Shown here piece after piece: positions 13,206-44,267 of a DNA stretch of 64,000 nucleotides (its first letter is position 1; each line of letters starts with the position of its first letter). The position numbers and the translations under genes were made by a program. The stretch covers positions 4,448,001-4,512,000 of the forward strand of contig CBDETK010000013.1 in assembly GCA_965242865.1 (NCBI GenBank), in the 5' to 3' direction. This stretch comes from Candidatus Latescibacterota bacterium (GTDB lineage: Bacteria > Latescibacterota > UBA2968 > UBA8231). The notes beneath the pieces are model-generated. The model did no database searches. It had not been told where the DNA came from and worked only from the letters and a program-made list of their open reading frames with translations.

Positions 13206-14840
13206 TTGCCGCGTCTTTTTCTCTTATCGCCCACTGCTTTACTCCTCGCCTGCACCGCCCCCGAACCCCCGTCCAACCCAGCCGCACTCGCCCGCGTCGG
13301 CGACGTCGTCATCACCCGCGACCGCGTCGAGCGCGCAGCCGTGCGGCTCTTTCCCAAGAACGCCCCGGGCGACCTCCAGCGCCAAGCACTTGAGCAGCTC
13401 ATCAACGTCGAAGTCTTGCTGTTGGCGGCCCGTCAAGACGGCCTAGACAACGACTTCCAAGTCAGGAGCAAGGTCGCGCAACGGGAACAAGAACTCATCC
13501 TTGACGAAATGTATCGGCGCGGCGTGGTCGCGGCCGCCGAGGACATCAGCCGGAACGAGGCCCGCCAGTACTTTGAGCAGCACCGCATCGGCCAGCAACG
13601 CCGCATAAGTCGCATTCTCGCCAGCGGGCCAGCCGCCATCGACCGCGTCCTCGCTCGCCTGCGGACGGCCGACAGCTTTGCCGCCGTAGCGGGCGAACTC
13701 TCGGACGACGGCAACACCGCCCAGCAGGGCGGCGACCTCGGCTGGAAGAGCCGCCTCGACTTCAAAAACTACATTCTGCGTCGCCAGATATTTGGCGCCC
13801 AATTAGGCGAGATCATCGGGCCCGTGCAGGAGCCCGATGGCTTCTCGGTCTTCGTGGTCACCGACGAGCGCGAAAGGCCCTTTGCGGACATGGCCCCGGC
13901 CGTCATCAAGACCATGCAGGAGCAAAAACACGCCATCGCCACGTTTGAGTTCCTTGAAGGGCTGGCCAACCGCGCCGACTTGGTGGAACGGCGCGAGACC
14001 TTTGAGCTGCTCTTGGCCCGGCTCAGCCAAGCCGGCCAAGCCATGCCCACGTTCAAAAAGGAAGAGACCGAATTAGTGCTGCTCGAACTCGACGGGGCAC
14101 CGTGGACGCTGGAGAACTTCATGGCGGCCATGACCAGCGAGCGCAACCCAGCCGAGATCCGCGAATTGGACGACTTGCGGCGCTTTGCCCGGCGCCTGTA
14201 TGCCCTCAAAGTTCTGTTGCCGCGCTACGCCCGCGAAATAGGCATTCGCGAAGCCGAGCGCGTCGCCAAGGGGATTGAAACCACGCGCCGCCAAGCCCTC
14301 GTCGAGCGCATCCGCCAAGTCCGCGTGCTCGAAACGCTCAACCCGTCCAAGGAGGACATTCGCGCGTATTACGAGGCGAATCGGGAGCTCTACGTGCGCG
14401 AGGAGCGCATCTCGATCCTCGAAATCCTCGTCGATACCCGCACGCAGGCCGACTCGCTGCTGGCCGCCATTGAACGCGGCGGCGAGCTCGGGGAACTGGC
14501 CCGCCGCTACTCGCGGCGCAGCACCCGCATCCGCCGGGCCGAAGGACGCATCCAGCTTTTGCGCCCGGACAAGTACGGCAATATAGGGTGGGAAGCCAAA
14601 GACGCCGCGGTCGGCCAGATCGTCGGCCCGGTCAAGACCGCGCAGGGCTTTGCGGTCTTCAAGGTGCTCAAGAAAGTGCCCCGTCGCCAGCAGAGCTTGG
14701 ACGAGGTGTGGGGCCGGGTGCGCTCCCACCTGCTTCAAGATCAGGCCCGGGAACGCTTCGATGCGTTGCTAGTCAAACTCAACGCTCAGTACGCCGACCA
14801 GATTCACATCTACGAGGACCGCCTGTACAAAGGGGCTTGA
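13206..14840 (+). CDS. Peptidyl-prolyl isomerase lipoprotein with two parvulin domains (PrsA/SurA-like)
   Basis: LLLAC lipobox; FAAVAGELSDDGNTAQQGGDLGW; GQIVGPVKTAQGFAVFKV. Confidence 0.87.
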   Translation: MPRLFLLSPTALLLACTAPEPPSNPAALARVGDVVITRDRVERAAVRLFPKNAPGDLQRQALEQLINVEVLLLAARQDGLDNDFQVRSKVAQREQELILDEMYRRGVVAAAEDISRNEARQYFEQHRIGQQRRISRILASGPAAIDRVLARLRTADSFAAVAGELSDDGNTAQQGGDLGWKSRLDFKNYILRRQIFGAQLGEIIGPVQEPDGFSVFVVTDERERPFADMAPAVIKTMQEQKHAIATFEFLEGLANRADLVERRETFELLLARLSQAGQAMPTFKKEETELVLLELDGAPWTLENFMAAMTSERNPAEIRELDDLRRFARRLYALKVLLPRYAREIGIREAERVAKGIETTRRQALVERIRQVRVLETLNPSKEDIRAYYEANRELYVREERISILEILVDTRTQADSLLAAIERGGELGELARRYSRRSTRIRRAEGRIQLLRPDKYGNIGWEAKDAAVGQIVGPVKTAQGFAVFKVLKKVPRRQQSLDEVWGRVRSHLLQDQARERFDALLVKLNAQYADQIHIYEDRLYKGA

Positions 14841-14861
14841 GCAAACGCGGCGAGGCCGCTT

Positions 14862-15341
14862 TTACTGATAAAGATCGTCCCCGTCAAACCGCATCTTTCC
14901 CTTGGATGCCTCTCCGAAGTACCGTTCGACCTTCTCTCGCGAGCGCGGAAAATACCGACTCAACTCTTCCACTACCGCTTGCACCTTCTCCATGTCTTCG
15001 CCCATATCGAGCAAGAGCCGGGCGTACAAAAAGAGCAACTGGGCGTTGCGGCGATCTACGGCCATGGCCTGCTCTAAGTGCGCCCGCGCCTCCTCCAACA
15101 GCCCCTCCTCGGCTAGGGCTGTCCCCATCAGCAGATTGGCTTCGGCCCCCTCTGGATACAGCGCGAGCAACACCTGCGCCAACTCCCGCAGGGATGTGCC
15201 TTTGAGCTGGGGCTGCCCCCGGGCGTGCATGCGCGGCAAAAGGTGCCCGTACTCGGCCGTGCGCTGCCGTTCAAAAAAGGCGAGCCCCGCGCCGACCACC
15301 ACCACGACCAAGAGCAATTTGAGCGAGCGCACGTATCGCAT
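14862..15341 (-). CDS. Small TPR protein with N-terminal membrane anchor
   Basis: MRYVRSLKLLLVVVVV, then TPR-like AEANLLMGTALAEEG. Confidence 0.75.
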   Translation of the reverse strand: MRYVRSLKLLLVVVVVGAGLAFFERQRTAEYGHLLPRMHARGQPQLKGTSLRELAQVLLALYPEGAEANLLMGTALAEEGLLEEARAHLEQAMAVDRRNAQLLFLYARLLLDMGEDMEKVQAVVEELSRYFPRSREKVERYFGEASKGKMRFDGDDLYQ

Positions 15342-15343: not shown

Positions 15344-16951
15344 TTAGCGCAAGAGCGTCATCCGCGCCACGTGCCGCACCCCACCGAGCTGCGCCGAGAC
15401 GAGATAGACTCCGCTGGCGACCGCTCGCCCGCGATCGTCGCGCCCATCCCACGCGAGCCGATGGACGCCAGCCGGCCGGTAGCCCCTAAAGAGCCGCCGC
15501 ACCGCCTGACCGAGGATGTTGTACACCTCGACCTCGACCTCGCCGGCCGCCGGCACTGCCACGGAGATCGCGGTTGAGGCATTGAAGGGGTTGGGAAAAT
15601 TGGACAGCCGCTCGACCACGGGGCGGGCGGCGAGCGCGGGCACCGGGAGCACGAGGCCGGCCTCGGCCGCTAATTCGAGCCCGGCTGGCGGCAATCCACT
15701 GGGCACGCGCGCCGGCACGTGAACCGCTATCGTCGAATCGGTCAGGGCATGCATGAAGGCCAACAGGTCTTGCTTTTCGGCCGCAGTCAGGCCCAGCGGC
15801 ACCAGCTCGGGGTCGATGTTCTCGCGGTCAATCGTCGGTTCGTCGCCGCCGCCGCGATCGTAGAACTCGATGACCTCCTCGAGCGTGGCAATCGCTCCGT
15901 CGTGCATGTAAGGCGCGGTCTGCGCGATCTGGCGCAAGCCCACCACGCGAAAAGCACCGATGTCGCTGAGGTTGCCGGTATTGAGGAACCGGCCTTCGTC
16001 TCTTCCGGTGGGACGCGGCGTGCCGGTATTGGTCGTGGCGGACGCCCGCCCCGGGCCGATTTGCTCGACCCCTTGGACGCGGAAGCTCGAATCCGTAAAC
16101 AGCGGCCCGCTGTGGCAGTTGACGCAGCGCGCCTTGTCGTGGAAGAGTGCCAACCCGCGCTTTTGCGCGGGCGTCAGGGCCTCGTCGTCGCCCGCCACGT
16201 AGTGATCGTAGGGGGTGTTGACCGTGATTTGCTCGCGCTCAAACGCGGCGATGGCCCGGCCAAAGGTCGAGCGCGTGATGACCGACTGCAAGGGCGTTGG
16301 GTCGTGGGTGCAACCGAGGCGCGGCACCTGCCGGGCCACAGAATCGGCTTCGGCCGGAAAGGCTTGCTCAAAGCGGGCCACGTATTCGGGGATCGACCGC
16401 AGCCGCGCCAACACGCTATCTACAGCCATCTCGCGCTCGTAGGCGTCGCCGCGCAGCTCGACGCGCACGATGATCGGCCGCAGCGCTTGGGCCTCCAACC
16501 CGCGATCTTTGCCGTCCCACAGCATGAAGCCCTTGGGCGAGGGCTGCCCGGACTCGTCGCCATTGTACCCGACGTTGAAGATGGTCATGGTGTGCCGCGC
16601 TTCCGAAATCACGGTGTCGCCGGTGACCGCCGAATACCCCAGCACCCGATCCGGCCCCAAGCCCTGCCCCGAAGGACCGGCCCCGAGCGGCCGCCCGTCG
16701 GCCATGCCAAAGGTCGGCAGGTGACACGTGCCACAGGCCGTGTCCTTCTCGCCGCTGAGGATGGGGTCGAAGAACAGGAGGCGACCCAACTCGACGCGGT
16801 CGGGATTGTACGGGTTGTTGGCGGGATAGGGCAGCGGCGGCACCGGCTGGAGGCCCAAGCGCGACCGCAGGTCGTCTTCCTGCCCCGGTGTGCTCACAGC
16901 ACTGGCGAGTACGGCCAGCGCGGCCGCTAGATACTTCTTATTCCTCTTCAT
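15344..16951 (-). CDS. Di-heme cytochrome c peroxidase (bCcP/MauG superfamily) with C-terminal FlgD-Ig/T9SS-CTD-like domain
   Basis: LGRLLFFDPILSG, CGTCH, CVNCH and APYMHDG motifs; tail NFPNPFNASTAI...YNILGQAVRRL...WDGRDDRG..VASGVY. Confidence 0.9.
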   Translation of the reverse strand: MKRNKKYLAAALAVLASAVSTPGQEDDLRSRLGLQPVPPLPYPANNPYNPDRVELGRLLFFDPILSGEKDTACGTCHLPTFGMADGRPLGAGPSGQGLGPDRVLGYSAVTGDTVISEARHTMTIFNVGYNGDESGQPSPKGFMLWDGKDRGLEAQALRPIIVRVELRGDAYEREMAVDSVLARLRSIPEYVARFEQAFPAEADSVARQVPRLGCTHDPTPLQSVITRSTFGRAIAAFEREQITVNTPYDHYVAGDDEALTPAQKRGLALFHDKARCVNCHSGPLFTDSSFRVQGVEQIGPGRASATTNTGTPRPTGRDEGRFLNTGNLSDIGAFRVVGLRQIAQTAPYMHDGAIATLEEVIEFYDRGGGDEPTIDRENIDPELVPLGLTAAEKQDLLAFMHALTDSTIAVHVPARVPSGLPPAGLELAAEAGLVLPVPALAARPVVERLSNFPNPFNASTAISVAVPAAGEVEVEVYNILGQAVRRLFRGYRPAGVHRLAWDGRDDRGRAVASGVYLVSAQLGGVRHVARMTLLR

Positions 16952-18030: not shown

Positions 18031-20379
18031 ATGAATTTTCGCATGGCCCTCGTCGCCCTCTTGATCTTGGGCGGCAGCCATCGGCTACCGCTCGCGGCCG
18101 ATGAACTGCGCTACGACTCGGTGCGCGACTGGCGTCCGTGGAATCTGCCCTTGGGCGCGGTGGAATTGACGGCCCAAGGCGTGATCCAGCCCACCCGAAT
18201 TGAGAAGCGGACCGACGCCGTGCGCGACCTTGGGGCCTTTGAGGGGGGCATCCGCGCCGCCGGGTCCAATCGCGCCGCGGCCCGCTTCGCCATCGACGGC
18301 AACCCGGCGACCGGCTGGGCTCCCGACCCAGCGGCCTCCCCTGAAAACTGGTTTATCGAGATCGACTTGGGCCGCGCGGTCTCGGCGCACAGCGTTACCT
18401 TGGTCTTTGACGCAGAAGCACCGCCCTTCGCGCTGTTCGACCTCTTGCTTTCGACCGGCGAGCCAGAAACCGACTTTATCGCCGCGCCCATCGAAGGCTC
18501 CCTCGTCTATCGAGTCAAAGAGCGGGTCAAGGAAAACGACCTCCACCGCTTGACGTACCCAATCGCGCACATCGACCAAGAACCCATCCAGTTCATCCGC
18601 TTTGAGCCGCTGCTTTTCGTGCCCGGTGCCCGCCTCGTCGAGGTCGAGGTCGAGACCATCGGCGACAACATCGCCCTCGGCCTCCTAGAGCGCGGCGGCG
18701 GCGTTGACATCAACATCAATCTCGCCAGCAACGATTCCCAGCCCCTCGGCAAGGCAAGAGCGCTCTTTGACGGCGACCTGTACGAGCGCTGGCGTGCGGG
18801 CACGGCGTCTAGGGGCCTAGTTGACATCCTCGCCCACATGGTTCTCGACTTAGGCGCGGTTTACTGGGTCGATCAAACGCGCATTATCGGCGGGGTGGTG
18901 GTGCGCTCCGGCTTTGGCGGCGGCATTACCACTCGCCACTACGTCTCGCGCCGACGCTGGGGCTTCCGCTTCTACGAGCTGATGACCTCGGATGGCTCGC
19001 TGTCGCCCGATGGGACCCGCCTGTGGACCAAGCACTTTTCCGGGGCCTCCCCGGGGGAGCAGACCTCCAAGGGCCTAGTGGATCACCACTTCGACCTGTT
19101 GCCGACGCGCTTCGTGCGCATCTTCTGGAAGTACTGGGATACCAGTTGCTATTCCTTCCAGCGGCTCGGAGAGGAGGGCGGCATCAACCGAGTTCCCGGC
19201 TGTGGCGCGGGTGGAGAAACCGACGAGATTCAGATTTTCGGCGAAGGCTTTCCAGCCGAAGTCGGCTTCCGCTCGCCCCTGCTCGACTTGGGCGAGGACA
19301 AGAACTTCAACTCGATAGAATGGGGCGGCGACCAGCCGCCGGGCACCCTGATCGAAGTCCGCACCCGCACGGGCAACGAAATTTTGGAGACCTATACCTA
19401 CCACGACAAAAACGGCAAGGAAGTCTCCGAGCGGCGGTACCACAAGCTCATCCCCAGTTTCAAGGGCCAGATCGACACCTCGTTTGTGGCCGGCGGCGAT
19501 TGGAGTGCTTGGAGCCGGCTTTACAGCTTCTCCGGCGATGCCTTTCTCTCGCCTTCGCCGCGACGCTACATGGAGATCGACGTCAAGCTGGTCTCCAGCG
19601 AGCCCGACCGGGCCGCGACGCTCGACTTCCTCGCCATCCATTCCACCCCGCCGCTGGCCAGCCGGGTACTGGGCGAAATTTTCCCCCAGCAGGCCCAGCC
19701 GGGGGTGCCGACCGAGTTCACCTATTACTTGCAGCCCGAAAACGCCCGTGGCTTTGACCGTCTCTCGGTCGAGTCGGACACCCCGGTGCAATTTACGAGT
19801 GTCGCGCACAATGGCGCCGCGCTGGCCGTGCAGATAGACACCACGGCCAGCGGTTTCCTCGTCCAGCTACCCAGCCGCATCCGCACTGATTCGCTCATCA
19901 AGCTGAAGTTTGAATCCTCGGTGTTCCGGCAATCGACGCGCTTTGACGTCTTTTTGCAGGACAGCCGACAAGACGCGAGCGTGCGCCAGCGCGTCGATCC
20001 GGGCGATGCCACCGACTTGGTCGCGAGCAACACCAACATCGTCAGCTTGCCGGTCTCGCGGGAGCTACTCGCCAATATATCCCTCTCGGCCAAGGCGATT
20101 ACCCCCAACGGCGATGGGATCAACGACGAACTGACGCTGGCGATCTCCTTAGTCAATGTGCTCGCGCCGCGCCCCCTGCGGCTCCGCCTGTACGACCTCG
20201 CCGGCCGCCTCGTGTGCGACCGCAGCCAAGACACCGCGGCTGGCCCGCAAGAAATCGTCTGGGATGGCCGCGACCGCCACGGCGAGCGCGTGGCCCCGGG
20301 CCTGTACCTGCTCGAAGTCCTCGTTGAGGGCGACGCGGGCGACGCAAAAACGCAAGCACTCGTCGCCGTAGCGTACTAG
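18031..20379 (+). CDS. Secreted discoidin-like/FlgD-Ig CTD protein, type A paralog 1
   Basis: Signal peptide; AIDGNPATGW...IDLG; GDNIALGLLERGG; WSAWS...SPSPRRY; ITPNGDGINDE; WDGRD..G..VAPGLY; ends VAVAY. Confidence 0.8.
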   Translation: MNFRMALVALLILGGSHRLPLAADELRYDSVRDWRPWNLPLGAVELTAQGVIQPTRIEKRTDAVRDLGAFEGGIRAAGSNRAAARFAIDGNPATGWAPDPAASPENWFIEIDLGRAVSAHSVTLVFDAEAPPFALFDLLLSTGEPETDFIAAPIEGSLVYRVKERVKENDLHRLTYPIAHIDQEPIQFIRFEPLLFVPGARLVEVEVETIGDNIALGLLERGGGVDININLASNDSQPLGKARALFDGDLYERWRAGTASRGLVDILAHMVLDLGAVYWVDQTRIIGGVVVRSGFGGGITTRHYVSRRRWGFRFYELMTSDGSLSPDGTRLWTKHFSGASPGEQTSKGLVDHHFDLLPTRFVRIFWKYWDTSCYSFQRLGEEGGINRVPGCGAGGETDEIQIFGEGFPAEVGFRSPLLDLGEDKNFNSIEWGGDQPPGTLIEVRTRTGNEILETYTYHDKNGKEVSERRYHKLIPSFKGQIDTSFVAGGDWSAWSRLYSFSGDAFLSPSPRRYMEIDVKLVSSEPDRAATLDFLAIHSTPPLASRVLGEIFPQQAQPGVPTEFTYYLQPENARGFDRLSVESDTPVQFTSVAHNGAALAVQIDTTASGFLVQLPSRIRTDSLIKLKFESSVFRQSTRFDVFLQDSRQDASVRQRVDPGDATDLVASNTNIVSLPVSRELLANISLSAKAITPNGDGINDELTLAISLVNVLAPRPLRLRLYDLAGRLVCDRSQDTAAGPQEIVWDGRDRHGERVAPGLYLLEVLVEGDAGDAKTQALVAVAY

Positions 20380-20401
20380 CGGGTCCGCAGGCAAAAAATT
20401 C

Positions 20402-20430
20402 TTGACAGACAAGCGCATATTTATTTGTTT
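20402..20430 (+). promoter_or_regulatory. Probable sigma70 promoter upstream of the 20600 gene
   Basis: Perfect TTGACA at 20402-20407 followed by an AT-rich -10 zone. Confidence 0.5.
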
Positions 20431-20525
20431 ACCCAACTATTATGAAAAAAATGTTCCCCCAAATCGCCGAGGAAAGGAGGTTTGAAGTATCCGCTGCTAC
20501 ACCGTTGAAAAACCTCGTAATTCCA

Positions 20526-20555
20526 CCCGCTGAAGCCCTAGCGGGCCTTTTTTTT
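20526..20555 (+). terminator. Hairpin plus U-tract in the leader of the 20600 gene
   Basis: CCCGCT-N8-AGCGGG followed by CC and T8. Confidence 0.45.
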
Positions 20556-20599
20556 ACTTCTTTTCACCATATAGAATCACTATCAAGGAGGATTTTACA

Positions 20600-21590: not shown

Positions 21591-21617
21591 CTATGGGGGT
21601 GAGAGGCGACACGCGTT

Positions 21618-35500: not shown

Positions 35501-37136
35501 CAGCCTCGACTTCTATCGCCTGCCGCGCGACACCGCTCCCCGGTACGAGGGGGGCCTCATCCGCGACCGCGCTTGGCGCGGCATGCAGGATTCCATCTTG
35601 GACTATGTGCAGAGTGCTTTCGGCGATCGCGCCTTGGTCGTGCCGCGCGCCTGGTACTTGTCGCCGGTCGAATCCGAACGGGCGTACATCGACTTTGCCG
35701 TGCCCGCGACCGGCGCGGCCAGTTTTGTCCACGGCTTGGTGGGCCTGCAGCCGGCCGAAGCCCGCGTGACGGGCCTCGACGCGCACGTCTCAGCCGGTCG
35801 CTTTTTTGCGGCCGGCGACGACAAGGTCGTCATCTTGCCCGACAGCCTCGCCGCGCTCGTCGGCATTGGGGCCGAGCAGGTGGGCACCGCAACCATCGCG
35901 CTCTACGGCGAGGAGTACCGAGTCATCGGCCTGTTCGACAGCGCGGCCCTGAAAGAAGTGGTCGATCTCGACGGCGAGCGGCTAACGCCCGTCGATACGG
36001 TCAAAGACGCTGGGCTGATCGCACGCGAGAGCACTGAAGACCCGCGCACCTTGGCCGCGACCGCGGTTGAGACCTTCAACCACCTCGACGTGGTCAACAC
36101 CCTCTTCTTGCCCTACCCGCGCGTCCGCGCCATGGAGGGCCGCTTGCGCTCCATCGCCATTGCCGCGGACGCGGACGACCCGCAATTCGTCCGGCGCGTG
36201 GAGTCCTTTATGTCGCGGGTGGCCCTGACCCTGTTCGTCGGCCAAGGCGACCGCGTCGTGGCGTACAGCTCAATCGGCTCCACCGAAATAAGCGGGGCCG
36301 GCCAGCTTTTGGTGCCCGTGATCATTGCCGCCCTGATCGTGCTCAATACCATGATGGGGGCCGTGTACGAGCGCGTGCGCGAAATCGGCATCTACAGCGT
36401 GGTCGGCTTGGCCCCCAGCCACATCGGCCTGCTGTTTTTGGCCGAGTCCACGGTCTTTGCCACCTTTGGCGCGGTGGTCGGGTACGCCTTGGGCCAAATC
36501 GCCCATCTGTTCATGCTACAATACGGGCTGCTCGCCGGCCTGACCCTCAACTACTCGTCGCTTTCGGCGGTGTGGGCTACGGTCGTGGTCATCGGCACGG
36601 TCTATTTATCGACCTTGTATCCAGCGCGCTTGGCCGCCAACCTAGCGGTCCCCGACGTGACGCGGCAATGGCAATTCCCCCCGCCGGTGGGCGATCACTG
36701 GCGCTTTGACTTTCCCTTTACGGTCGGCGGGGCCGAGGTGCCGAGCATGTACGCGTATCTCAAGTCGGTCTTTGCCGCGTACGGCGAAGGCTCCATCGGC
36801 GACTTCATCGCCCGCGACGTCGAGCTATCCATCGCCACCGACGGGCCGGAGCCATCCTACGCCATTGCCATGCGTACTTGGCTGGCCCCCTACGACCTAG
36901 GGATCAGCCAAAAGGTGCGCTTGCAGGCGACGCCCACCGGCGAGCACCGCATCTACAAGATCGAGACCCACATCGAGCGTCTCAGCGGGGATGTGGCCTC
37001 GTGGCAGCGCATGAATCGCAAATTCCTCAATGTGCTGCGCAAGCGATTCTTGGTGTGGCGCACCTTGTCGCCCGGGATCCGCCAAGGGTATCGGGACGCG
37101 GCCGAACAGGCGTTTGCCGAGGCGGGGCCGCCGTAG
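32547..37136 (+). CDS. Large fusion: PA/M28-peptidase-like periplasmic domain plus MacB/FtsX-like ABC permease
   Basis: QAHYD...APGAESATG...LLEIAR; LIVLNTMMGAVYERVREIGIYSVVGL FtsX motif; several TM bundles. Confidence 0.85.
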   Translation: MLTKFLLAATAAFFLLSVTAFDPATISRWMERAIGWEPLRESPPTAEASSLRDAVAQINAAALERHLRVLTADSSRVTGYAGAARAARYIEGEFRRLGLQVTRELFPVSVPRDRGGRLRVVGADKTIPIYGLWPNHVRPPSLPPGGISGPLIDLGRGSLAEMDGKRLAGSIALMGFGSGNAHVQARALGAQAILLYDDGRVTRSEAAEKFLQVPVDIPRFWLAGADAKALRPQARTGDVEVHLQAQLDWEQVQASNLFAVLPGLAEDMPRGQRREIEQWSDQIIVLQAHYDAISVVPALAPGAESATGMAALLEIARLLVAEGTRYTVLFLATPGHFQGLAGVNDFLYRHARESAHFRDQIPPAERIDFRLFVGLDLASHSPRVGAFTMGTFYNSAWRNDDYQKNLMAHYAARFGRYNREIFADSTRYQDAIAPQKRVWKNFMPVRLALDSEAAAFVGKEALSFVTPNQLRQRVDTPLDRLEFVALDNLAEQTRTIAGLLLKAASDPDFFNDTKLTLRDWGHRLEGHIYWFDRDVNFAVPKAPVPNALVTYLQPGPNSVAGVRTLMVAHGDETGYFEFDIVRNRFANRIQAFELNEYGRIVSAPDLGEEGDKTYPSTQPYGWWENRMLQVLFRCRALSFLEVVDPRYLSAMDRVNVLGPNDAPPRSFSLNYIENQSAAQDRVVQAGVVFAEPGTRVKILAGERAFGGESALAGVRYLLTNADSALFADLDPAGVDLATIERAQGAGFPIEQGLIPYPALQAARDLWIIDEARIKQMVRHGIVLEQLQAMHEQAREALLEASDKLAAFDYTGYQRAVRRALGLEARIYPQVKATANDAVRAVIFYFALLLPFAFFCERFFLGFPDVRRQIAGFVGIFILVFLILRFVHPAFKLSTSPYIIFLAFVILALGVLVIFIVVSRFKGLLQRRKGAAAGMHETDVGRVAAGFAAVLLGISNLSKRRLRTALTAATLTFLTFTVNSFTSVKSSLDFYRLPRDTAPRYEGGLIRDRAWRGMQDSILDYVQSAFGDRALVVPRAWYLSPVESERAYIDFAVPATGAASFVHGLVGLQPAEARVTGLDAHVSAGRFFAAGDDKVVILPDSLAALVGIGAEQVGTATIALYGEEYRVIGLFDSAALKEVVDLDGERLTPVDTVKDAGLIARESTEDPRTLAATAVETFNHLDVVNTLFLPYPRVRAMEGRLRSIAIAADADDPQFVRRVESFMSRVALTLFVGQGDRVVAYSSIGSTEISGAGQLLVPVIIAALIVLNTMMGAVYERVREIGIYSVVGLAPSHIGLLFLAESTVFATFGAVVGYALGQIAHLFMLQYGLLAGLTLNYSSLSAVWATVVVIGTVYLSTLYPARLAANLAVPDVTRQWQFPPPVGDHWRFDFPFTVGGAEVPSMYAYLKSVFAAYGEGSIGDFIARDVELSIATDGPEPSYAIAMRTWLAPYDLGISQKVRLQATPTGEHRIYKIETHIERLSGDVASWQRMNRKFLNVLRKRFLVWRTLSPGIRQGYRDAAEQAFAEAGPP

Positions 37137-37144: not shown

Positions 37145-38128
37145 GTGCGCGAAAAGCCGCCCTATACCATCTCATCCGATATTCTCTTTCGCATTGAACA
37201 AATCGGCGAAGCGATTGGCCGGGCCGAGGCCGCGGGCCTTGCGCAGGATTTGCGCTTGCGACGCATCAATCGCATCCGCACGATTTGTGGCTCGCTCGCC
37301 ATTGAAGGCAACATCCTCAGCGAGGAGCAAATCTCCACGATTCTCGACGGCAAGCCCGTCGTCGCCCCCCCGAGAGACATTCGGGAAGTCCGCAACGCCA
37401 TTGCGGCCTACGATCAATACCAGCAATGCAGCCCCGCCAGCGAGGCCGACCTGTTGCGCCTGCACGAAATTTTGCTGACCGGCCTATTGGACGCGCCCGG
37501 CCCATATCGCCGCACTGGCGTAGGCGTTATGGGCGGCGGCGAAATCCATCACGTCGGCCCGCCCGCCCAGCGCGTACCGCAACTCATGGCGAATTTGTTG
37601 GCGTGGCTGGGCAGCACCGATGAGCATCCGCTCATTGCCAGTTCGGTCTTCCATTACGAGCTCGAGTTCATTCACCCCTTTGAGGACGGCAACGGTCGGA
37701 TGGGGCGGCTCTGGCAGACTCTGATTCTGACCCGCTGGAAACCCCTGTTTGCCCACATCCCGGTGGAGAGTATGGTTCACATTCGCCAAGGCGACTACTA
37801 CGAAGCGATCAGGCAGAGTTCGACCGCCGGCGAGAGTACGCCGTTTATTGGGTTCATGCAGGACATTATTCTGGAGGCCCTCCAGTCTTCCGCAATAAGC
37901 GACCAAGTAAGCGACCAAGTAGCGCGGCTACTCAGGGCCCTGCGGACCGGCCCGAAAACCGCCGCCGAACTCATGGCGGCTCTGGGGCTGTCGCATCGTC
38001 CTACATTCCGCAAAAACTACATTCGCCCGGCCCTAGCCGCCGGGCTGGTGGAAATGACCCGCCCGGGATCGCCCACCGCGAAAAACCAAAAGTATCGGCT
38101 CACTACACGCGGACGGGAGCTGCGCTGA
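37145..38128 (+). CDS. Fic family protein with C-terminal DNA-binding HTH
   Basis: Canonical HPFEDGNGRMGR; SLAIEGN inhibitory motif; tail LSHRPTFRKNYIRPAL...PTAKNQKYRLT; GTG start at 37145. Confidence 0.92.
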   Translation: MREKPPYTISSDILFRIEQIGEAIGRAEAAGLAQDLRLRRINRIRTICGSLAIEGNILSEEQISTILDGKPVVAPPRDIREVRNAIAAYDQYQQCSPASEADLLRLHEILLTGLLDAPGPYRRTGVGVMGGGEIHHVGPPAQRVPQLMANLLAWLGSTDEHPLIASSVFHYELEFIHPFEDGNGRMGRLWQTLILTRWKPLFAHIPVESMVHIRQGDYYEAIRQSSTAGESTPFIGFMQDIILEALQSSAISDQVSDQVARLLRALRTGPKTAAELMAALGLSHRPTFRKNYIRPALAAGLVEMTRPGSPTAKNQKYRLTTRGRELR

Positions 38129-38202
38129 GATCTGTCTGCGCCCTTGACAAAGCCCCGCCACCAAAATAGGCTTAACTTAACTTAGCTATCGGAGAGTTCG
38201 CC

Positions 38203-38283
38203 ATGGTGAACATGCCCGAGGTCAAATCGCAGCTTTCGCGCCAAGGGAAGCTACTCGCCATAATTGCCGCCATCTCTCGTTAA
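38203..38283 (+). pseudogene. 5' remnant of a Phd/YefM-family antitoxin
   Basis: GGAGAG RBS then MVNMPEVKSQLSRQGKL, which resembles the VNMHEAKSQLSRL Phd consensus; early stop. Confidence 0.65.
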
Positions 38284-38358
38284 CGGAGCATCTCCGATTG
38301 ACCTGCCAAAGTGCCAATGGCATTTTAGGCTACAAATCCCTCACTCAATAGCGAAAGG

Positions 38359-39123
38359 ATGCTACTCATGCCAGCCACAGCACGTCAAATGGTTCAACCT
38401 ATCTCAGCCACAATGGACACCGTAACAGCAACAGTGTTTAGTGATCGTCGTACTATTCAAGCTCCCGACATCGCTTTGCCCAAAGCTCTAAAGCCCAACA
38501 CTCGTGTGAAGATGGACGGATTAAAGTTTCTCGGTTTACTACCCTTAGAAAGCATCCCAGTGGCTTTTTTCGATCCACAATATCGAGGAGTGCTTGATAA
38601 GCTGTCCTATGGAAATGAAGGCCAGCAACGTGGAAAACGGCGGTACGCGCTCATGCAAATGAGCGAGGCGGATATTACCAAATTCATACAGGGGATTGAC
38701 CGTGCGCTTATCCCATCCGGCCACTTGTTTTTGTGGATGGATAAATTTCACCTCTGTCAGGGTTTCAAGAATTGGATTGACTCGACGGACTTAGATGTTG
38801 TGGATCTAATCTCTTGGGACAAGGGCAAGCTCGGTATGGGCTACCGCTCGCGCCGAATTACGGAATACTGCGTCGTTCTGCAAAAGCAACCCCGTAAGGC
38901 AAAAGGGGTTTGGAAAGTTCACAACATTCCCGATACATGGCGCGAAAAAGTGGTTAAGACAGTGCATCCACACACAAAGCCCATAGACCTACAAGGCGAA
39001 TTAATTTGTGCGGTATCTAATGAGGGGGATTATGTGATTGACCCTGCGGCTGGTTCCTTCTCAGTAATGGAGGCAGCCCAGTTACGCGGCCGCAACTTCT
39101 TAGGGTGTGATTTGGAGGGATAA
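38359..39123 (+). CDS. Beta-class N6/N4 DNA methyltransferase (type II RM)
   Basis: FFDPQY (DPPY variant) precedes HPHTKP and VIDPAAGS; low GC. Confidence 0.88.
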   Translation: MLLMPATARQMVQPISATMDTVTATVFSDRRTIQAPDIALPKALKPNTRVKMDGLKFLGLLPLESIPVAFFDPQYRGVLDKLSYGNEGQQRGKRRYALMQMSEADITKFIQGIDRALIPSGHLFLWMDKFHLCQGFKNWIDSTDLDVVDLISWDKGKLGMGYRSRRITEYCVVLQKQPRKAKGVWKVHNIPDTWREKVVKTVHPHTKPIDLQGELICAVSNEGDYVIDPAAGSFSVMEAAQLRGRNFLGCDLEG

Positions 39124-39124
39124 T

Positions 39125-39910
39125 ATGGCACTTATCCGTAACGCCGCGCCCAAGAACGTCTCGGGGGCTTATGTGCGGCTGTTTGATAACCACGAACTAG
39201 GAACATTAGTCAGTAAGTTGCAGTCCACCGTCATCTCTTCAGGCAGCGAACTAGAAAAAATTATCACGAAGCAGGTGGAGAACATCCCCGATCTGGATGC
39301 GTTCCTAGAGCAAGAAATTATGCCTGAAGGAGTCTATATGGCCTGCAAGCAACAGATGAAGCAATCGAAGACCTTGGATTTCTCAGAGGCCGAGCCAGAC
39401 TTTATGATTTTCAAGCGGCGCGAAAATCGACAACGCTGCCATATCGTAGAGTTAAAGGATGGCCATGTCTTTGATACTAAAAAAGCCAGCGCGGAACGAC
39501 AAGCCATGCACGGCTTTACTGAGCGAAATGCTCTACATCTACCGTACGTGGTATCATGCCATTTCTGTGCATTCAATCAGGAAGACAAAGAGGCAATCCT
39601 AACAGGTTTCAAGAACAAGATAACCCGAGACGAAGTCATGACAGGCCGCGAGTTTTGTGAGTTGCTGGAAATTGACTACCACCAGATTGTCTCCAGCCGA
39701 TTAAGCGAGGGAGCAGCCAATCTTGACTATTTTTGCCGTGAGTTAGTCAAAATACCAGCCGTCCGAGAACGCTTGGGGCGGCTGATTAAAGAGGAACGTC
39801 AGCCTGGTGGGCTAGAGGGAAAAATTTGGCTGTCTCCAGACTTCGATGAGCCCGATGAAGAACTCATAGAACTGATTGAGAACTCGAAAATTTTCCCAGA
39901 TGAGGATTAG
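39125..39910 (+). CDS. Putative type II restriction endonuclease, C-terminally fused to an antitoxin tail
   Basis: EPDF...IVELKDG PD-(D/E)xK motif; adjacent to the MTase; ends RQPGGLEGKIWLSPDFDEPDEELIE. Confidence 0.75.
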   Translation: MALIRNAAPKNVSGAYVRLFDNHELGTLVSKLQSTVISSGSELEKIITKQVENIPDLDAFLEQEIMPEGVYMACKQQMKQSKTLDFSEAEPDFMIFKRRENRQRCHIVELKDGHVFDTKKASAERQAMHGFTERNALHLPYVVSCHFCAFNQEDKEAILTGFKNKITRDEVMTGREFCELLEIDYHQIVSSRLSEGAANLDYFCRELVKIPAVRERLGRLIKEERQPGGLEGKIWLSPDFDEPDEELIELIENSKIFPDED

Positions 39911-39912
39911 CC

Positions 39913-40293
39913 ATGTCGCGGCTACTGTTGGATACCCACCCCCTTTTATGGTGGCTATCCGATGTGGAGCAACTGGCCGAAGATGCCCGGGCCGCAATTG
40001 CCGACCCGCACAATGACGTTTTCGTCAGTGCCATCACCGGGTGGGAAATCGCGGTCAAGCAAGCCAAGGGTCGCTTGGTCGCTCCAGACAATCTGTCGAT
40101 GTTGATTGAGCAAAAGGGCTTTACCCACCTTCCGCTGACGTTCCAGCACGCCGAGCAGGCCGGCCGCCTCCCGTTGCACCACCGGGATCCATTCGATCGG
40201 TTCCTGATTGCCCAAGCTCAGGCCGAAGGGCTGATCCTCGTGACTCGGGATGGCCTCATTCGGCGATACGACGTGGCCATCATGAAGGTTTGA
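39913..40293 (+). CDS. vapC: VapC family PIN-domain toxin
   Basis: LLLDTH, VSAITGWEI and HHRDPFDRFLIAQA...LVTRD. Confidence 0.93.
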   Translation: MSRLLLDTHPLLWWLSDVEQLAEDARAAIADPHNDVFVSAITGWEIAVKQAKGRLVAPDNLSMLIEQKGFTHLPLTFQHAEQAGRLPLHHRDPFDRFLIAQAQAEGLILVTRDGLIRRYDVAIMKV

Positions 40294-40370: not shown

Positions 40371-42281
40371 ATGACCGCACGCGCCTTCCTCATCGGCTTG
40401 GGCCTCGTGGTCCTGATCAACATTGGGGCCCCGTATAGCATGTTCATCCTCAAGTCCTCGCAATGGGCGATCAGCTACCTGCCCCTGAGCGTAGTCTTTC
40501 TCTTTACCGCCTTAGTCTTTCTCAACGCCACGGCCAAGTCGCTGCTCAAGGTGCGCGGCCTGAACACCAGCGAGCTCGGCCTCGTCTTTACCATGTCCTT
40601 GGTCGGGGCCTCGATTCCCACTTGGGGCACCTCCACGTACATGATCGCGGTCATCGCCGCCCCCCAGTACTTTGCCTCGCCCGAAAACCAGTGGCAGAGC
40701 AAGGTCGTGCAGTACATCGAGGAATGGCTCGTGCCCAACGACGCGATTGCCCTCAAGTGGTTTTACAACGGCCTGCCCGCCGGCGAATCCATCCCTTGGG
40801 GCGCGTGGATCGGGCCGCTTTTTTGGTGGACCAGCTTGGTCATGGCCATCTTCTTTTTGTGTCAGTGCATGGTCGCCGCCCTGCGCAAGCAGTGGGTCGA
40901 ATACGAGCGCCTGCCCTTCGCCCTGATGGCATTGCCCCAACAACTCATCGCCCCACCGCGCGGCTCCAACTGGCCCGGTTTTGTGCGCCAAAAGGCGTTC
41001 TGGTTCGGCTTTGCCCTGCCCTTCTGCATGGTTATGTGGAACGTGGTCACGTACTTTACCCCGGCCTTTCCGCCCATCCCCCGCGACCTGTCCGACCCCA
41101 TCCGCATTGGCCGCGAATTTCCCGCTATTCACACCAACGTCAACTGGGCCATCGTCGGCTTTGCGTACTTCGTCAACCTTGACGTGTCGTTCAGCTTGTG
41201 GTTCTTCACCGCGCTCACCATGCTGCAACAGGGCCTGTTCAATCGCTTCGGCTACACCTTGGCTGGCCGCGATGTGTACACCCTCGGGCATCCTGGGATC
41301 GGCTGGCAGTCTTTCGGTGCTCTAATCGCCCTCGTCGGCGGCATGCTGTGGATGGCGCGCGGGCACCTCGGCGCGATCTGGCGCAAAGCGGTGCATAACG
41401 ATGCGGCCATCGACGACGCCGACGAGCTGATGTCCTACCGGATGATCGTCTTTGGCGGCGGGCTGGCCCTGCTCTACATCGCCTTTTGGCTGTGGCGGGC
41501 CGGCATGAACCCGCCCACGGTCGCGCTCTTCATCTTAGCGACCTTGGTTCTCTACGTCGGCATTACGCGCATCATCATGGAGGGCGGCTTGCTCTTTAGC
41601 CGCGCCCCGCTCGTCGGCCAGACCTTTGTCGGCTACGCGCTCGGGCCGCACGCCACCGCGCAGAGCAACATCGCCCTGGGGCTGTCCTACGGCTGGCACC
41701 ACGAGCTCAAGGGCTTTTTCATGGTCGCCGCGGCCAACAGCGCCAAAGTGGCCGGCTCCATCCGCGGCAACCGCCGCTATCTGAGCTTCTACCTCCTCCT
41801 CTCGGCGCTGGTAGCCCTGGTCGTCTCCATGGCCTTCGCGCTCTACATGGGCTACTCCTTTGGCGCGTACAACTACGGGGGGTGGATCTTCGGCACCGGC
41901 TCGCAAGTGCCCTACGTGGAAAGCCTGCGGAAAATCGATCTCAAGGCCCCGGATTGGACGCGGTTGGGCCACCTCGTCAGCGGCGCGGGCGCGATGGGGT
42001 TGTTGACCTTTATGCGCTACCGCTTCTCGTGGTGGCCCCTGCACCCGATTGGCATGCCGGTCGGCATCTGCTCCTACCCCATGACCATTATCGTCTTTTC
42101 GATCTTCGTCTCTTGGCTGGCCAAATGGGCCATTATGCGGTCGGGCGGCATCGGCCTCTACCACCGCGCCCAACCCTTCTTCATCGGCCTCATCCTCGGG
42201 TACTTCACCGCGATTGGCCTGTCCTTTTGCATCGACATGATTTGGTTCCCCGGGCAAGGGCACCCCCTGTACGGAAACTAG
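40371..42281 (+). CDS. Polytopic membrane protein (DUF6785/DUF6784-like)
   Basis: LRKQWVEYERLPF; RYRFSWWPLHPIG; GGIGLYHRAQPFFIGLILG. Confidence 0.75.
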   Translation: MTARAFLIGLGLVVLINIGAPYSMFILKSSQWAISYLPLSVVFLFTALVFLNATAKSLLKVRGLNTSELGLVFTMSLVGASIPTWGTSTYMIAVIAAPQYFASPENQWQSKVVQYIEEWLVPNDAIALKWFYNGLPAGESIPWGAWIGPLFWWTSLVMAIFFLCQCMVAALRKQWVEYERLPFALMALPQQLIAPPRGSNWPGFVRQKAFWFGFALPFCMVMWNVVTYFTPAFPPIPRDLSDPIRIGREFPAIHTNVNWAIVGFAYFVNLDVSFSLWFFTALTMLQQGLFNRFGYTLAGRDVYTLGHPGIGWQSFGALIALVGGMLWMARGHLGAIWRKAVHNDAAIDDADELMSYRMIVFGGGLALLYIAFWLWRAGMNPPTVALFILATLVLYVGITRIIMEGGLLFSRAPLVGQTFVGYALGPHATAQSNIALGLSYGWHHELKGFFMVAAANSAKVAGSIRGNRRYLSFYLLLSALVALVVSMAFALYMGYSFGAYNYGGWIFGTGSQVPYVESLRKIDLKAPDWTRLGHLVSGAGAMGLLTFMRYRFSWWPLHPIGMPVGICSYPMTIIVFSIFVSWLAKWAIMRSGGIGLYHRAQPFFIGLILGYFTAIGLSFCIDMIWFPGQGHPLYGN

Positions 42282-42284
42282 CCC

Positions 42285-44267
42285 ATGGCGCAAGACGACA
42301 AAAAATCGCCCGAGCTGATTCCCGCGGACCTCGAGTTTGAACCGGGGTTCAACGTCAAGACCTTGTGGGCCGCGCTCTTCGTCGGCTTCATCATGCTGCC
42401 CGGGGCCATCTACTTGGGGTTGGTCACCGGCCAAAGCATGGCCGGCGGCGCCGAGTGGGTGACGCTCATCCTCTTCATCGAAATCGCCAAGCGCTCGTTC
42501 GCCCGGCTGCGCACCCAAGAGGTGATCATTCTCTACTGGGTGGCCGGCGGCTTGGTCGTGATGGGCGGCAAGTTGGGCACGGGGGCCGAGTTGTTTGGCG
42601 GGCCGTTTGGCGGGCTGATCTGGGACCAATACTTGATCCAATCGCCCCAAGCCGACGGCTTGCACCAGTACATCCCCGATTGGGTGGTGCCGCCGCGCGG
42701 CTCGACGGCCCTCGCGGGACGCTCCTTTTTGCACCCGGACTGGATCAAGCCCATCGCCCTCCTGCTGACCGTCATCGTCATGCAGAAGGTCAACAGCCTG
42801 TCCTTGGGCTACGTGCTCTTCCGCGTCACCAACGACATCGAGCGCCTACCGTACCCGCTGGCCGCCGTGCAGGCCGGCGGCGCCACCGCCCTCGCCGAGA
42901 GCTCGGGGCCGAGCCAAGGCTGGCGGTGGGAAGTCTTTAGCGTCGGGGCCTTTATCGGCATTGTCTGGGGGCTGTTCTACGTGGTCATCCCCACGATTTC
43001 GGGCATTTTCTTCACCGAAACGGTGACCATCCTGCCGATTCCGTTCATCGACCTGACCGTTTCGATCAAGGAAATGCTGCCGGCGAGCATCATGGGCATT
43101 GGCACGGACTTGGGGCACGTCATGGTCGGCTTTGTCCTGCCCTTTTGGATCGTGGTCGGCTCCTTTGCCGCGGCCTTCCTCGTCAATCTCCTCGTCAATC
43201 CGTTGCTCTACGCGTACGATGTGCTGCACACTTGGGAGCCGGGCATGTCCGCGATCCCCACGCAGATCGCCAACTCCTTTGACTTCTGGCTCAGCTTCTC
43301 CATTGGCGGCGCGGTCGTCGTAGCCGTGATGGGTTTTGCCATGGTCGGCAAGACCCTGTGGACTTTGCGCGGCGTCAAGCGCGCCGAGGGCGACGAGCTC
43401 CGAACCGAGGGCCGCGGCGACATCCCCATCCCCCTCGCCTTGGGCCTCTGGGCGGTGAGTACGCTCGGCTTCGTGGTCTTGGTGTGGTATTTGGTGCCGG
43501 AATTTCCCTGGTGGATCAGCGCGTTCTTCGGCTTTGTGTGGACGCCGATTTACTCGTACATCGGAGCGCGCATGATCGGCCTAACCGGCTCGCCGCAAGG
43601 CGCGTCCTTTCCCTATCTGCGTGAAGGCTCCTTTTACCTGTCGGGCTATCAGGGCGCGGCCGTGTGGTTCGCGCCGATTCCGCTCTTCCAGTGGGGCTAC
43701 GAAGCGGCGGCCTTCAAGCAGCTAGAGCTGACCCGCACTCACTTCGGCAGCATCGTCAAGCTGGCCGGCGTAACCCTGCTGATCATGTTCGTCTGCTCGT
43801 TTGTGTTCTGGTCTTTTATTTGGCAGCTCGGGCCGATTCCCTCGGCCGCCTACCCCTACGTGCAAAAGTTTTGGCCCTTCCACGCCACCATGCAGGCGTT
43901 CTGGGCCAAGTCAACCCTCGCCGAAGGGGGCAACGAGCTGATCAAGACGATCATTCGCTGGGAATACGTGCTCACCGGCGCGTTGGGCAGCGCGGGCATT
44001 TTGGGCGCGTTGGCGCTGGTGCGCTGGCCGGTCGCCCTGTTCTACGGCTTCATCGGCGGCGTGGGCGCGTGGCCGCACTTTCTGCTGCCCAACTTCATCG
44101 GCGCGTTGCTGGGCCGCTATCACTTGCGGAAGCGTTTTGGCGCGGCGCGCTGGCGGGTGTATGCGCCGATTCTCTTGGCGGGGTATTCGTGCGGGATGGG
44201 ATTGGTCGGCATGTCGTCCATCGCGCTGGCGCTGATTTCTAAGGCCGTGTCGAGCATTGTGTTTTGA
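42285..44267 (+). CDS. OPT-superfamily-like polytopic membrane protein (putative peptide transporter)
   Basis: Many TM helices; DIERLPYPLAAV..GGATALAE. Confidence 0.7.
   Translation: MAQDDKKSPELIPADLEFEPGFNVKTLWAALFVGFIMLPGAIYLGLVTGQSMAGGAEWVTLILFIEIAKRSFARLRTQEVIILYWVAGGLVVMGGKLGTGAELFGGPFGGLIWDQYLIQSPQADGLHQYIPDWVVPPRGSTALAGRSFLHPDWIKPIALLLTVIVMQKVNSLSLGYVLFRVTNDIERLPYPLAAVQAGGATALAESSGPSQGWRWEVFSVGAFIGIVWGLFYVVIPTISGIFFTETVTILPIPFIDLTVSIKEMLPASIMGIGTDLGHVMVGFVLPFWIVVGSFAAAFLVNLLVNPLLYAYDVLHTWEPGMSAIPTQIANSFDFWLSFSIGGAVVVAVMGFAMVGKTLWTLRGVKRAEGDELRTEGRGDIPIPLALGLWAVSTLGFVVLVWYLVPEFPWWISAFFGFVWTPIYSYIGARMIGLTGSPQGASFPYLREGSFYLSGYQGAAVWFAPIPLFQWGYEAAAFKQLELTRTHFGSIVKLAGVTLLIMFVCSFVFWSFIWQLGPIPSAAYPYVQKFWPFHATMQAFWAKSTLAEGGNELIKTIIRWEYVLTGALGSAGILGALALVRWPVALFYGFIGGVGAWPHFLLPNFIGALLGRYHLRKRFGAARWRVYAPILLAGYSCGMGLVGMSSIALALISKAVSSIVF

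Follow-up and report, generated by a model that had tools for sequence, protein, structure and literature searches.

The 64,000-nt stretch of a Candidatus Latescibacterota genome analysed here (the window) contains a 31-kb region, positions 13206-44267, that raises the question of how many of its genes work as one system. Genes for four paralogous lectin-like secreted proteins (two of an A type and two of a B type, together the A/B proteins), a CBM9-like protein, a large outer-membrane barrel, lipoprotein foldases and a small lipoprotein are found there alongside genes for three inner-membrane proteins, and an earlier note on this DNA had proposed a single machine spanning both membranes. The listing of open reading frames (ORFs) with Pfam and NCBIfam profile scans, a crude call of 4350 genes for the whole genome, with families derived from all-against-all clustering and tblastn with the locus proteins, and a comparison with other genomes lead to a different answer, which we favour on balance: the region comprises three juxtaposed units, namely a surface cassette, an inner-membrane trio and a small insert, and not one machine. 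For the surface cassette, the reading with somewhat better than even prospects is that lectin-like proteins delivered through a type IX secretion system (T9SS) are displayed on a cognate giant barrel, which would do the job of PorP/SprF without being related to it.

A repeated cassette around a giant barrel

The surface cassette recurs throughout this genome. Specifically, 26 runs of core genes that include a barrel comprise 182 genes in total, 146 of them core genes. A CBM9-like gene and a lipoprotein gene usually come first, followed by one to four A/B genes, the barrel and, last, a foldase. The barrel family has 36 paralogues, and the A/B proteins are with 95 genes the largest paralogue family in the clustering of the 4350 genes; their copies share 27-36% identity, and the four-way paralogy in the window is far beyond chance. 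With 444 of the 4350 genes lying near a barrel, 9.7 A/B genes would be expected there, and 73 of the 95 are found. None of the 36 barrels is more than six genes away from an A/B gene; 31 have one at most three genes upstream on the same strand, and 21 have one immediately upstream. Proximity to a barrel is likewise seen for 17 of the 25 CBM9-like genes, 22 of the 27 foldase family members and 10 of the 12 small-lipoprotein paralogues detected by tblastn. The window's 544-aa foldase begins with a lipobox-like LLLAC, and the 438-aa SurA-N-like lipoprotein clusters with the family of this foldase but has no parvulin match.

The core genes have also diverged in step with their barrels. In Mantel correlations of pairwise distances, barrel against neighbour, with 2000 permutations, the lipoprotein reaches r 0.92 (9 pairs), the CBM9-like protein 0.75 (17 pairs), the foldase 0.54 (22 pairs) and the A/B proteins 0.49 (32 pairs), and in each case 0/2000 permutations reach the value. 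Looser companions of the cassette are FG-GAP/ASPIC proteins (17 of 40 family members near barrels), TPR proteins (13 of 22) and PMT_2+TPR proteins, and the first two do not co-diversify with the barrel (FG-GAP r -0.20, 11 pairs, 1740/2000; TPR r 0.17, 12 pairs, 189/2000). The DUF6785 protein, one of the three inner-membrane proteins, gives r 0.39 (9 pairs, 38/2000). This pattern shows that the cassette core duplicated and diverged together.

The same arrangement is present in other genomes. Pattern scanning, for which the barrel alignment was used, gave 511 confirmed relatives, the best 80 of which all come from metagenome-assembled genomes labelled Latescibacterota, or Gemmatimonadetes/-ota by their submitters. 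Flanking genes were counted in these best 80 of 511 loci, which are not independent, many being orthologues. An A/B gene lies immediately upstream of the barrel in 51 of the 59 loci having at least 5 kb of upstream flank, and the 48 loci that extend at least 8 kb to both sides contain A/B genes in 48 cases, CBM9-like genes in 36, lipoprotein genes in 35, foldase genes in 35, DUF6785 genes in 25 and genes for the large permease of the trio (M28-FtsX) in 8. In a sample of 121 genomes of the phylum, with presence of the A/B body called at E<=1e-40, barrel and A/B proteins occur together in 63, the barrel only in 9, A/B only in 0 and neither in 49. The suggestion of the earlier note that tailed proteins, barrel, foldase, CBM9-like protein and lipoprotein make up an undescribed outer-membrane unit is therefore borne out, as these genes are conserved together here and in other genomes. 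No published description of the cassette was found, nor anything on DUF6785 or on Latescibacterota or Latescibacteria with type IX secretion; the available part of PMC5596340 concerns other lineages.

At the centre of the cassette stands a protein of 870 residues with zero Pfam or NCBIfam matches, even at E<=10, and none in Pfam to Plug or TonB-dependent-receptor families in particular. Its AlphaFold model, for which 37 sequences were used, 20 of them paralogues from this genome and 16 of them homologues from databases, has a predicted local distance difference test score (pLDDT) of 76.7 and a predicted template-modelling score (pTM) of 0.76. It consists of long antiparallel strands, ~26 by count. 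Residues ~257-360 form an inserted beta-sandwich of nine strands, and residues ~455-575 an acidic, D/N-rich loop of ~120 residues. Because both inserts lie on the long-loop side of the model, they should face outwards by the usual rule for outer-membrane proteins. Within the long loop, a cluster of Asp and Asn residues that is invariant in the 37 sequences (residues ~486-570, window positions 29143-29400; DDNDDxD, DENND, DMNxN and ENDxExDYPY) looks like several calcium sites; most Asp and Asn positions that the family keeps invariant fall in this loop. Foldseek returns only generic large barrels (SlpA of Deinococcus, 7zgx/8ae1, as well as MtrB, BtuB and LptD) at template-modelling (TM) scores of 0.18-0.28, and transport barrels such as BtuB, LptD and ushers are among the nearest folds. 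In the ESM Atlas, the 30 nearest clusters are all unnamed, the nearest named one being DUF6029 at 0.89, a lead only; at least 120 database homologues exist, all 'hypothetical' or unnamed among the matches listed.

The partners encoded directly upstream resemble binding proteins. The four A/B proteins score 37.9, 23.5, 31.1 and 27.0 bits, in gene order, against the F5/8-type-C model (cut-off 28.2), and the A type differs from the B type by an additional N-terminal discoidin-like module. All four N-termini are signal-peptide-like when judged by eye: they start with charged residues, continue into a hydrophobic core and end Ala-rich. An AlphaFold2 model of the 601-aa B protein (63 sequences; pLDDT 92.5, pTM 0.84) is all-beta, a string of beta-sandwiches ending in the tail. 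The best Foldseek matches of this model are galactose oxidase, which we take to begin with a galactose-binding domain, adhesins, macroglobulins and PorU (6za2_B), all at TM <= 0.2, and the search returned no well-fitting enzyme fold; judged from the model, the B protein looks like a lectin or adhesin and non-enzymatic. The CxxCH haem motif is absent from the nine cassette proteins checked. MtrCAB-like electron transfer, a candidate prompted by the MtrB fold match and the nearby peroxidase, was rejected on this ground.

The remaining cassette genes were surveyed in 10 of the 17 unassigned interior and 28 of the 54 flanking genes, the flank tally covering 25 of 45 families. The survey lists TPR and coiled-coil proteins, one methylase, one TonB-dependent receptor and housekeeping genes. 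Two interior genes have weak GDSL-type matches (29.7 and 37.3 bits, compared with a cut-off of 32.9), and a single sulfatase lies in a flank; neither a glycoside hydrolase nor a peptidase family is listed in this part, and no enzyme class recurs there.

These properties can also be read as those of a variable surface coat, in which the A/B proteins would be alternative outer-layer or antigen-like versions on the barrel, diversified against phages or host recognition and not for nutrients. The S-layer-anchoring SlpA proteins are the best fold matches of the barrel, albeit at TM only 0.19-0.27, the A/B proteins are both the largest paralogue family and widely diverged between copies, and a coat would fit with the missing recurrence of enzymes in the cassette genes scanned. 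Against a coat, no SLH or other S-layer domain is matched in any cassette protein scanned, there is no sign of a switching mechanism, though no search for invertible or phase-variable elements was made, and the discoidin-type and CBM9-like modules point to ligand binding. We regard a coat as distinctly improbable.

A probable link to type IX secretion

How the A/B proteins would reach the surface is suggested by their tails, which match FlgD_ig and the type-B model CHU_C (27.7, 22.6, 28.0 and 27.0 bits; cut-off 27) and have a weak match to PorU's C-terminus. TIGR04183 (type A; 19.6 bits, cut-off 23) and TIGR04131 (19.9 bits, cut-off 35) each match one A/B protein only. The window itself is without a T9SS gene, as the earlier note had correctly remarked, and the translocon is encoded elsewhere in the genome. 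Specifically, a 2150-aa frame matches SprA with 481.9 bits against a cut-off of 200, PorU reaches 624.3 bits against one of 420, and the gene next to PorU is PorV-like, its 147.4 bits lying below the cut-off of 250; SprA is furthermore present in 116 of the 121 sampled genomes. An iterated profile built from the tails detects 178 tail-bearing proteins among the 4350 called genes, 93 of them in the A/B family, and the A/B tails form a distinct clade (1 change on the tree, support 97). Given the T9SS-type tails and the presence of SprA and PorU in the genome, the A/B proteins are most likely cargo of T9SS and not substrates of a new export route. The earlier note had considered such a route for proteins with this C-terminal domain (CTD), and had named correspondence to T9SS as an argument against its proposal. 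This argument applies by half, the tails mapping onto T9SS, with SprA, PorU and the PorV-like protein encoded elsewhere in the genome.

In the model that we favour, the A/B proteins are made with Sec signal peptides and are folded, probably, in the periplasm, perhaps helped by the cassette's own SurA/PrsA-like lipoprotein foldases. They would then use the C-terminal beta-sandwich tail to leave through the outer membrane by way of the only T9SS translocon of the genome (SprA, PorV-like, PorU), and would, once outside, be held on the cassette's own ~26-strand barrel. Also part of the complex would be the loop-side insert and acidic loop of the barrel, the CBM9-like protein and the small lipoprotein. 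Such an assembly would act as a lectin-like device for binding, made in 26 diverged versions per genome, presumably for different ligands.

Several points weigh against this model. Gene content, barrel fold, paralogy, synteny, co-diversification, the dissociation of cassette and trio in both directions and the occurrence of SprA and PorU are shown here, and we infer T9SS secretion, barrel anchoring and ligand binding alike. Co-diversification and synteny speak for co-inheritance, not for physical contact. The barrel has no detectable similarity to PorP/SprF in the NCBIfam and Pfam scans, in which TIGR03519 is not matched. The A/B tail clade is what common descent alone would produce, and the occurrence of the tail on 85 non-A/B proteins means that a general PorV/PorU route without a dedicated anchor would suffice. 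Moreover, GldL (TIGR03513) and GldM (TIGR03517, PF12081) are unmatched in this 93.6%-complete genome, and GldK (TIGR03525) has only FGE-like matches there, the best at 68.8 bits against a cut-off of 350, neither search having a positive control. Across the 121 genomes, the GldM cut-off is reached in 0, likewise with no positive control genome, so that divergent homologues may be missed; either the motor is too diverged for the GldL and GldM models, or the translocon is powered differently. Two features of the inner-membrane trio belong here as well. The DUF6785 gene lies near a barrel in 9 of 28 copies, compared with 2.9 expected (hypergeometric P 0.0013), and at 25 of the 48 loci elsewhere, which fits uptake better than pure display, and the adjacency of trio and cassette, kept across genera and with a 28-bp gap, leaves room for a local functional tie.

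An uptake system, as a functional analogue of the polysaccharide utilization loci (PULs), would put the same parts to a different use: the A/B and CBM9-like proteins would capture a ligand, the barrel would be the channel, gated by the lipoprotein or the acidic loop, and a DUF6785 transporter of presumed OPT fold would take the product across the inner membrane. Apart from the enrichment of DUF6785 genes beside cassettes, ~26 strands would give a wide lumen, transport barrels are among the nearest folds, the locus proteins carry lectin-type domains, and 26 diverged cassettes per genome resemble the PUL numbers of Bacteroidota genomes. The barrel, on the other hand, matches neither Plug nor TonB-dependent receptors, it has no apparent energy source, SusD is not found, and the genome already has ~21-22 TonB-dependent transporters. 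The survey of cassette genes yielded no recurrent degradative enzyme, and the DUF6785 protein co-diversifies only weakly with the barrel, with 19 of its 28 copies lying elsewhere. Uptake is the main rival of display, though as such an unlikely reading. A TonB-independent, T9SS-loaded form of capture and import, in which the A/B proteins would feed the ~26-strand channel, the DUF6785 protein would complete the route and the M28-FtsX trio would have been recruited in this lineage, seems quite unlikely to us; if true, it would be a Latescibacterota counterpart of Sus-type loci made from unrelated parts, in a phylum whose T9SS is without the known GldLM motor.

The genome also has a variant cassette. 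At C13:4623341-4632416, a 320-aa PorP/SprF-like barrel (44.5 bits) takes the place of the giant barrel behind CBM9-like and lipoprotein genes. Upstream there is a divergent A/B gene, and downstream a gene for a TPR/YfiO-like protein of 1081 aa. This barrel is one of the genome's only two PorP-like matches (44.5 and 43.6 bits; cut-off 90.55), both away from the locus studied here, and gives a hint that barrels of the giant and the PorP-like kind may replace one another. Additionally, C13:3157996-3203553 and 367171-406357 contain long tandem arrays of ~720-950-aa FG-GAP proteins, 31 of 32 with the tail. They represent a second large cargo family, unrelated to A/B and not beside barrels.

The inner-membrane trio and the insert

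The large protein of the trio is distributed differently from the barrel. M28-FtsX, in which an M28/PA-like ectodomain is fused to a MacB/FtsX-type permease, is present in 108 of the 121 genomes and the barrel in 72. Three genome families (f2, f3 and f4; 44 genomes, the listed ones mostly 95-100% complete) have M28-FtsX in 44/44 and the barrel in 0/44, and a further one (f10; 13 genomes) has the barrel in 13/13 and M28-FtsX in 0/13, with SprA still present in 10 of the 13. Within this genome, the families comprise 5 M28-FtsX, 5 660-aa-type and 28 DUF6785 proteins; the window's M28-FtsX gene is the only one of the five beside a barrel, 35 of the 36 barrels have no M28-FtsX beside them, and four of the five M28-FtsX genes have both DUF6785 and 660-aa-type partners within a few genes. 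This two-way phyletic dissociation indicates that the trio is a separately inherited, more widespread module. Co-occurrence and synteny, which the earlier note had proposed as a check, thus support the grouping for the outer-membrane cassette genes and not for the M28-FtsX trio, and the proposal of one machine across both membranes is not supported by the 121 genomes.

One machine extending over 13206-44267, based in the inner membrane on M28-FtsX and the two polytopic proteins, would account for the co-directional run and for a gap between the lipoprotein and M28-FtsX genes of 28 bp that is without a terminator-like site. The order barrel, SurA-like protein, lipoprotein, M28-FtsX, DUF6785 and 660-aa protein is kept in the relatives G091 and G083 of the same genus and in G055 of another, and M28-FtsX stands behind the cassette in nine orthologous loci (L074-L082), down to 75% barrel identity. 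MacB/FtsX-type permeases, furthermore, transmit force to periplasmic partners, and a role is left vacant by the GldLM motor, which has not been found for this T9SS. The adjacency is that of one lineage of loci, in which the trio may be co-transcribed with the cassette. Against a general tie stand the 44 genomes with M28-FtsX and no barrel, the 13 with the reverse, 10 of them with SprA, the many barrels and four of five M28-FtsX genes that do not adjoin one another, the relative G088, whose orthologous cassette has no trio behind it, and the unrelated insert that splits the trio here. The obligate form of the one-machine reading is largely refuted by the two-way dissociation, and one machine in any form appears highly improbable to us.

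The sequences of the three proteins give further indications of what the trio is. When the M28-like part is compared with aminopeptidase 2ek8, in a single phmmer pairwise alignment of 27.5 bits, HxD is kept (AHYD), GAxDDASG has become GAESATG, and the Glu-Glu pair has become His-Phe. The same part also matches nicalin, presumably a non-catalytic M28 relative, and together with the altered motifs this suggests that the ectodomain is probably inactive as a peptidase. The C-terminal part of M28-FtsX matches YtrF, MacB, LolC and FtsX chains; ABC_tran is unmatched in the 1529-aa protein, and the one labelled ATPase family is missing among the neighbours of the five paralogues, most of these neighbours having no Pfam scan. 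Pfam at E<=10 yields nothing of use for the 660-aa protein, the small lipoprotein or the middle part of M28-FtsX. The nearest ESM Atlas clusters of the 660-aa protein (0.98) are of a 'peptide transporter family', with PF03169 in 33% of the members of the top cluster, which makes this protein OPT-like by language-model features. The DUF6785 protein matches PF20581/PF20580 only. That it might be a paralogue of the 660-aa protein was rejected, the BLASTP match (22.7 bits, E 0.048) being too weak.

Metatranscriptome run X1, which holds 0.05 of the sampled words, gave contigs ~90% identical to the window, i.e. from a relative. These contigs extend over M28-FtsX (32540-37130), the junction of PIN and DUF6785 and some parts of the 660-aa gene, with short pieces only of the barrel gene and with the SurA-like and most of the lipoprotein gene uncovered, and inform neither about transcription units nor about absent expression.

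Between the first and the second gene of the trio, the co-directional run is interrupted by four insert genes (37172-40293) that went unmentioned in the earlier note. Their GC content is 0.50, compared with ~0.63 around them. In G091 the insert is absent and DUF6785 starts 3 nt after M28-FtsX; G083 has PIN alone. Among the nine orthologous loci, four have no insert, two have Fic and PIN, one has PIN, one has Fic, and one ends before this point, and contigs of run X5 skip 694 bp inside Fic. The insert site is a variable spot for small mobile cargo and part of neither module.

Layout of the locus and relation to known systems

The gene list of the earlier note proved accurate in the ORF listing and the profile scans, which located every named gene where it had been placed; the features are collected in Table 1.

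Table 1 Units and genes in and next to the 31-kb region, in window coordinates
Feature	Position	Strand	Profile matches and remarks
Surface cassette (unit)	18031-32518, with foldase 13206-14840	+	
Inner-membrane trio (unit)	32547-37136 and 40371-44267	+	
Fic/methylase/PIN insert (unit)	37172-40293	+	splits trio between first and second gene
FG-GAP + ASPIC/UnbV + TPR protein, 1028 aa	9945-13031	-	Pfam
Double-parvulin lipoprotein-type foldase, 544 aa	13206-14840	+	Rotamase_2 78.3 bits, Rotamase 72.3 bits
Di-haem cytochrome c peroxidase with T9SS-type CTD	15344-16951	-	CCP_MauG 125.2 bits, FlgD_ig 46.2 bits
FGE-sulfatase-domain protein, 305 aa	16938-17855	-	PF03781 187.1 bits
A-type lectin-like protein, 782 aa	18031-20379	+	two discoidin-like N-terminal modules, beta-sandwich domains, CTD
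CBM9-like secreted protein, 303 aa, without CTD	20600-21511	+	CBM9_1 23.9 bits, cut-off 23.4
B-type lectin-like protein, 598 aa	21618-23414	+	F5/8-type-C and FlgD_ig/CHU_C matches
A-type lectin-like protein, 789 aa	23461-25830	+	F5/8-type-C and FlgD_ig/CHU_C matches
B-type lectin-like protein, 601 aa	25843-27648	+	F5/8-type-C and FlgD_ig/CHU_C matches; AlphaFold2 model
Outer-membrane barrel, 870 aa	27688-30300	+	AlphaFold model; no catalogued family
SurA-N-like lipoprotein, 438 aa	30288-31604	+	SurA_N_3 23.8 bits, cut-off 27.2; TIGR02925 37.2 bits, cut-off 108.9
Small lipoprotein, 250 aa	31766-32518	+	lipobox LLLGC
M28/PA-like ectodomain + MacB/FtsX-type permease, 1529 aa	32547-37136	+	Peptidase_M28 34.8 bits, FtsX 42.4 bits (cut-off 25.5), PA 17.4 bits
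Fic	37172-38128	+	Pfam
DNA-methylase-like ORF	38359-39123	+	
Putative antitoxin	39107-39910	+	
PIN	39913-40293	+	Pfam
DUF6785/DUF6784 polytopic membrane protein, 636 aa	40371-42281	+	PF20581 367.9 bits, PF20580 87 bits
Polytopic membrane protein, 660 aa	42285-44267	+	without Pfam match

Within the cassette, the SurA-N-like lipoprotein gene overlaps the barrel gene by 13 nt. A terminator-like hairpin follows the first A gene (20526-20545) and one with a 15-bp stem follows the CBM9-like gene (21551-21585); these strong hairpins, which bracket the CBM9-like gene, suggest that transcription of the B-A-B-barrel run is separate from that of the first A gene and the CBM9-like gene, with the proviso that terminator-like sites overall (21, compared with 18.9 in shuffles) are not above shuffles. 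Directly 5' of the lipoprotein start, the stretch 31637-31747 is GC-rich and, when read in another frame, gives a PVAVPVAVPIAVV-type repeat; run X5 has contigs with 30 other letters in place of 109 bp of this stretch, and it may be a variable intergenic repeat.

Upstream of the first A gene, the peroxidase with CTD belongs to a family of only 2 genes, and its tail falls outside the A/B tail clade; it is particular to this locus and stands outside the repeated cassette. The FGE-domain gene, with 3 of 6 family members near a barrel, is an occasional neighbour. As a candidate for GldK it was rejected (61.5 bits; cut-off 350). Further out, window positions 1-4444 hold the foldase, TPR and FG-GAP/ASPIC genes of a neighbouring cassette region, and 48762-51721 a further FG-GAP/ASPIC and TPR pair, so that such pairs flank the locus on both sides. 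The segments 44951-48055 and 51783-60793 contain AAA_14/DUF4143, two Uma2-type nuclease-like ORFs, a Schlafen/AlbA_2-HATPase_c_4 protein and another DNA-methylase-like ORF, which could be defence or mobile genes.

Taken together, 146 of 4350 genes, in a crude gene call, form the core of one repeated surface module, the central part of which is an outer-membrane barrel family without a catalogue entry, and the A/B proteins account for 93 of the genome's 178 T9SS-type cargo candidates. If display on a cognate barrel is the correct reading, the logic by which type-B T9SS cargo has its cognate barrel is not limited to Bacteroidota and takes a much larger, non-homologous form elsewhere, and the uncultured phylum Latescibacterota puts much into a binding surface that is diversified. 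The finding supplies concrete protein sets for structural and binding studies, and raises the side question of how the SprA translocon is powered in a phylum without detected GldM.

Both modules can be compared with known systems. The permease of the trio is akin to type VII ATP-binding cassette (ABC) transporters (MacB/FtsX/LolC/YtrF), as its FtsX C-terminal domain matches YtrF, MacB and LolC. It differs from them in the ~800-aa M28/PA-like ectodomain fused in front, in that no ATPase family has been seen among the labelled neighbours of the five paralogues and in being paired with two OPT-like proteins, not with an adaptor and an exit duct. The 660-aa partner in turn recalls OPT/YSL transporters, its nearest ESM Atlas clusters being peptide-transporter/OPT-like.

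The barrel of the cassette is comparable in size to LptD-LptE (5iv9), MtrB-MtrA (6r2q) and SlpA (8ae1), its top Foldseek matches, and the co-inherited small lipoprotein (r 0.92) could act as a plug in the manner of LptE. It departs from these systems in its low TM scores of 0.18-0.28, in having no sequence similarity to them and no haem motif, and in matching neither SLH nor the LptD N-terminal domain. With the SusC/SusD PULs of Bacteroidota, the cassettes share the presence of many diverged copies that pair surface binding proteins with a large barrel, but no locus protein matches Plug, TonB_dep_Rec or SusD, glycoside hydrolases do not recur in the scanned genes, and the binding proteins are T9SS-tailed and not lipoproteins.

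The parallel on which our reading is built is that of T9SS type-B CTD cargo with cognate PorP/SprF-like outer-membrane proteins, exemplified by SprB-SprF and PG1035-PorP-PorE (PMC9143113, PMC12618676). In contrast to PorP/SprF (~300 aa), the cassette barrel has ~870-950 aa and ~26 strands and does not match TIGR03519, and in contrast to the type-B pairs, the cassette combines one to four cargo paralogues with its own foldase and a CBM9-like protein, in the phylum Latescibacterota and with no GldL/GldM detected. The A/B tails score at or near the CHU_C cut-off. What the two have in common is the arrangement itself: the genes for the tailed cargo lie directly upstream of that for a dedicated barrel, often with a lipoprotein, in many pairs per genome.

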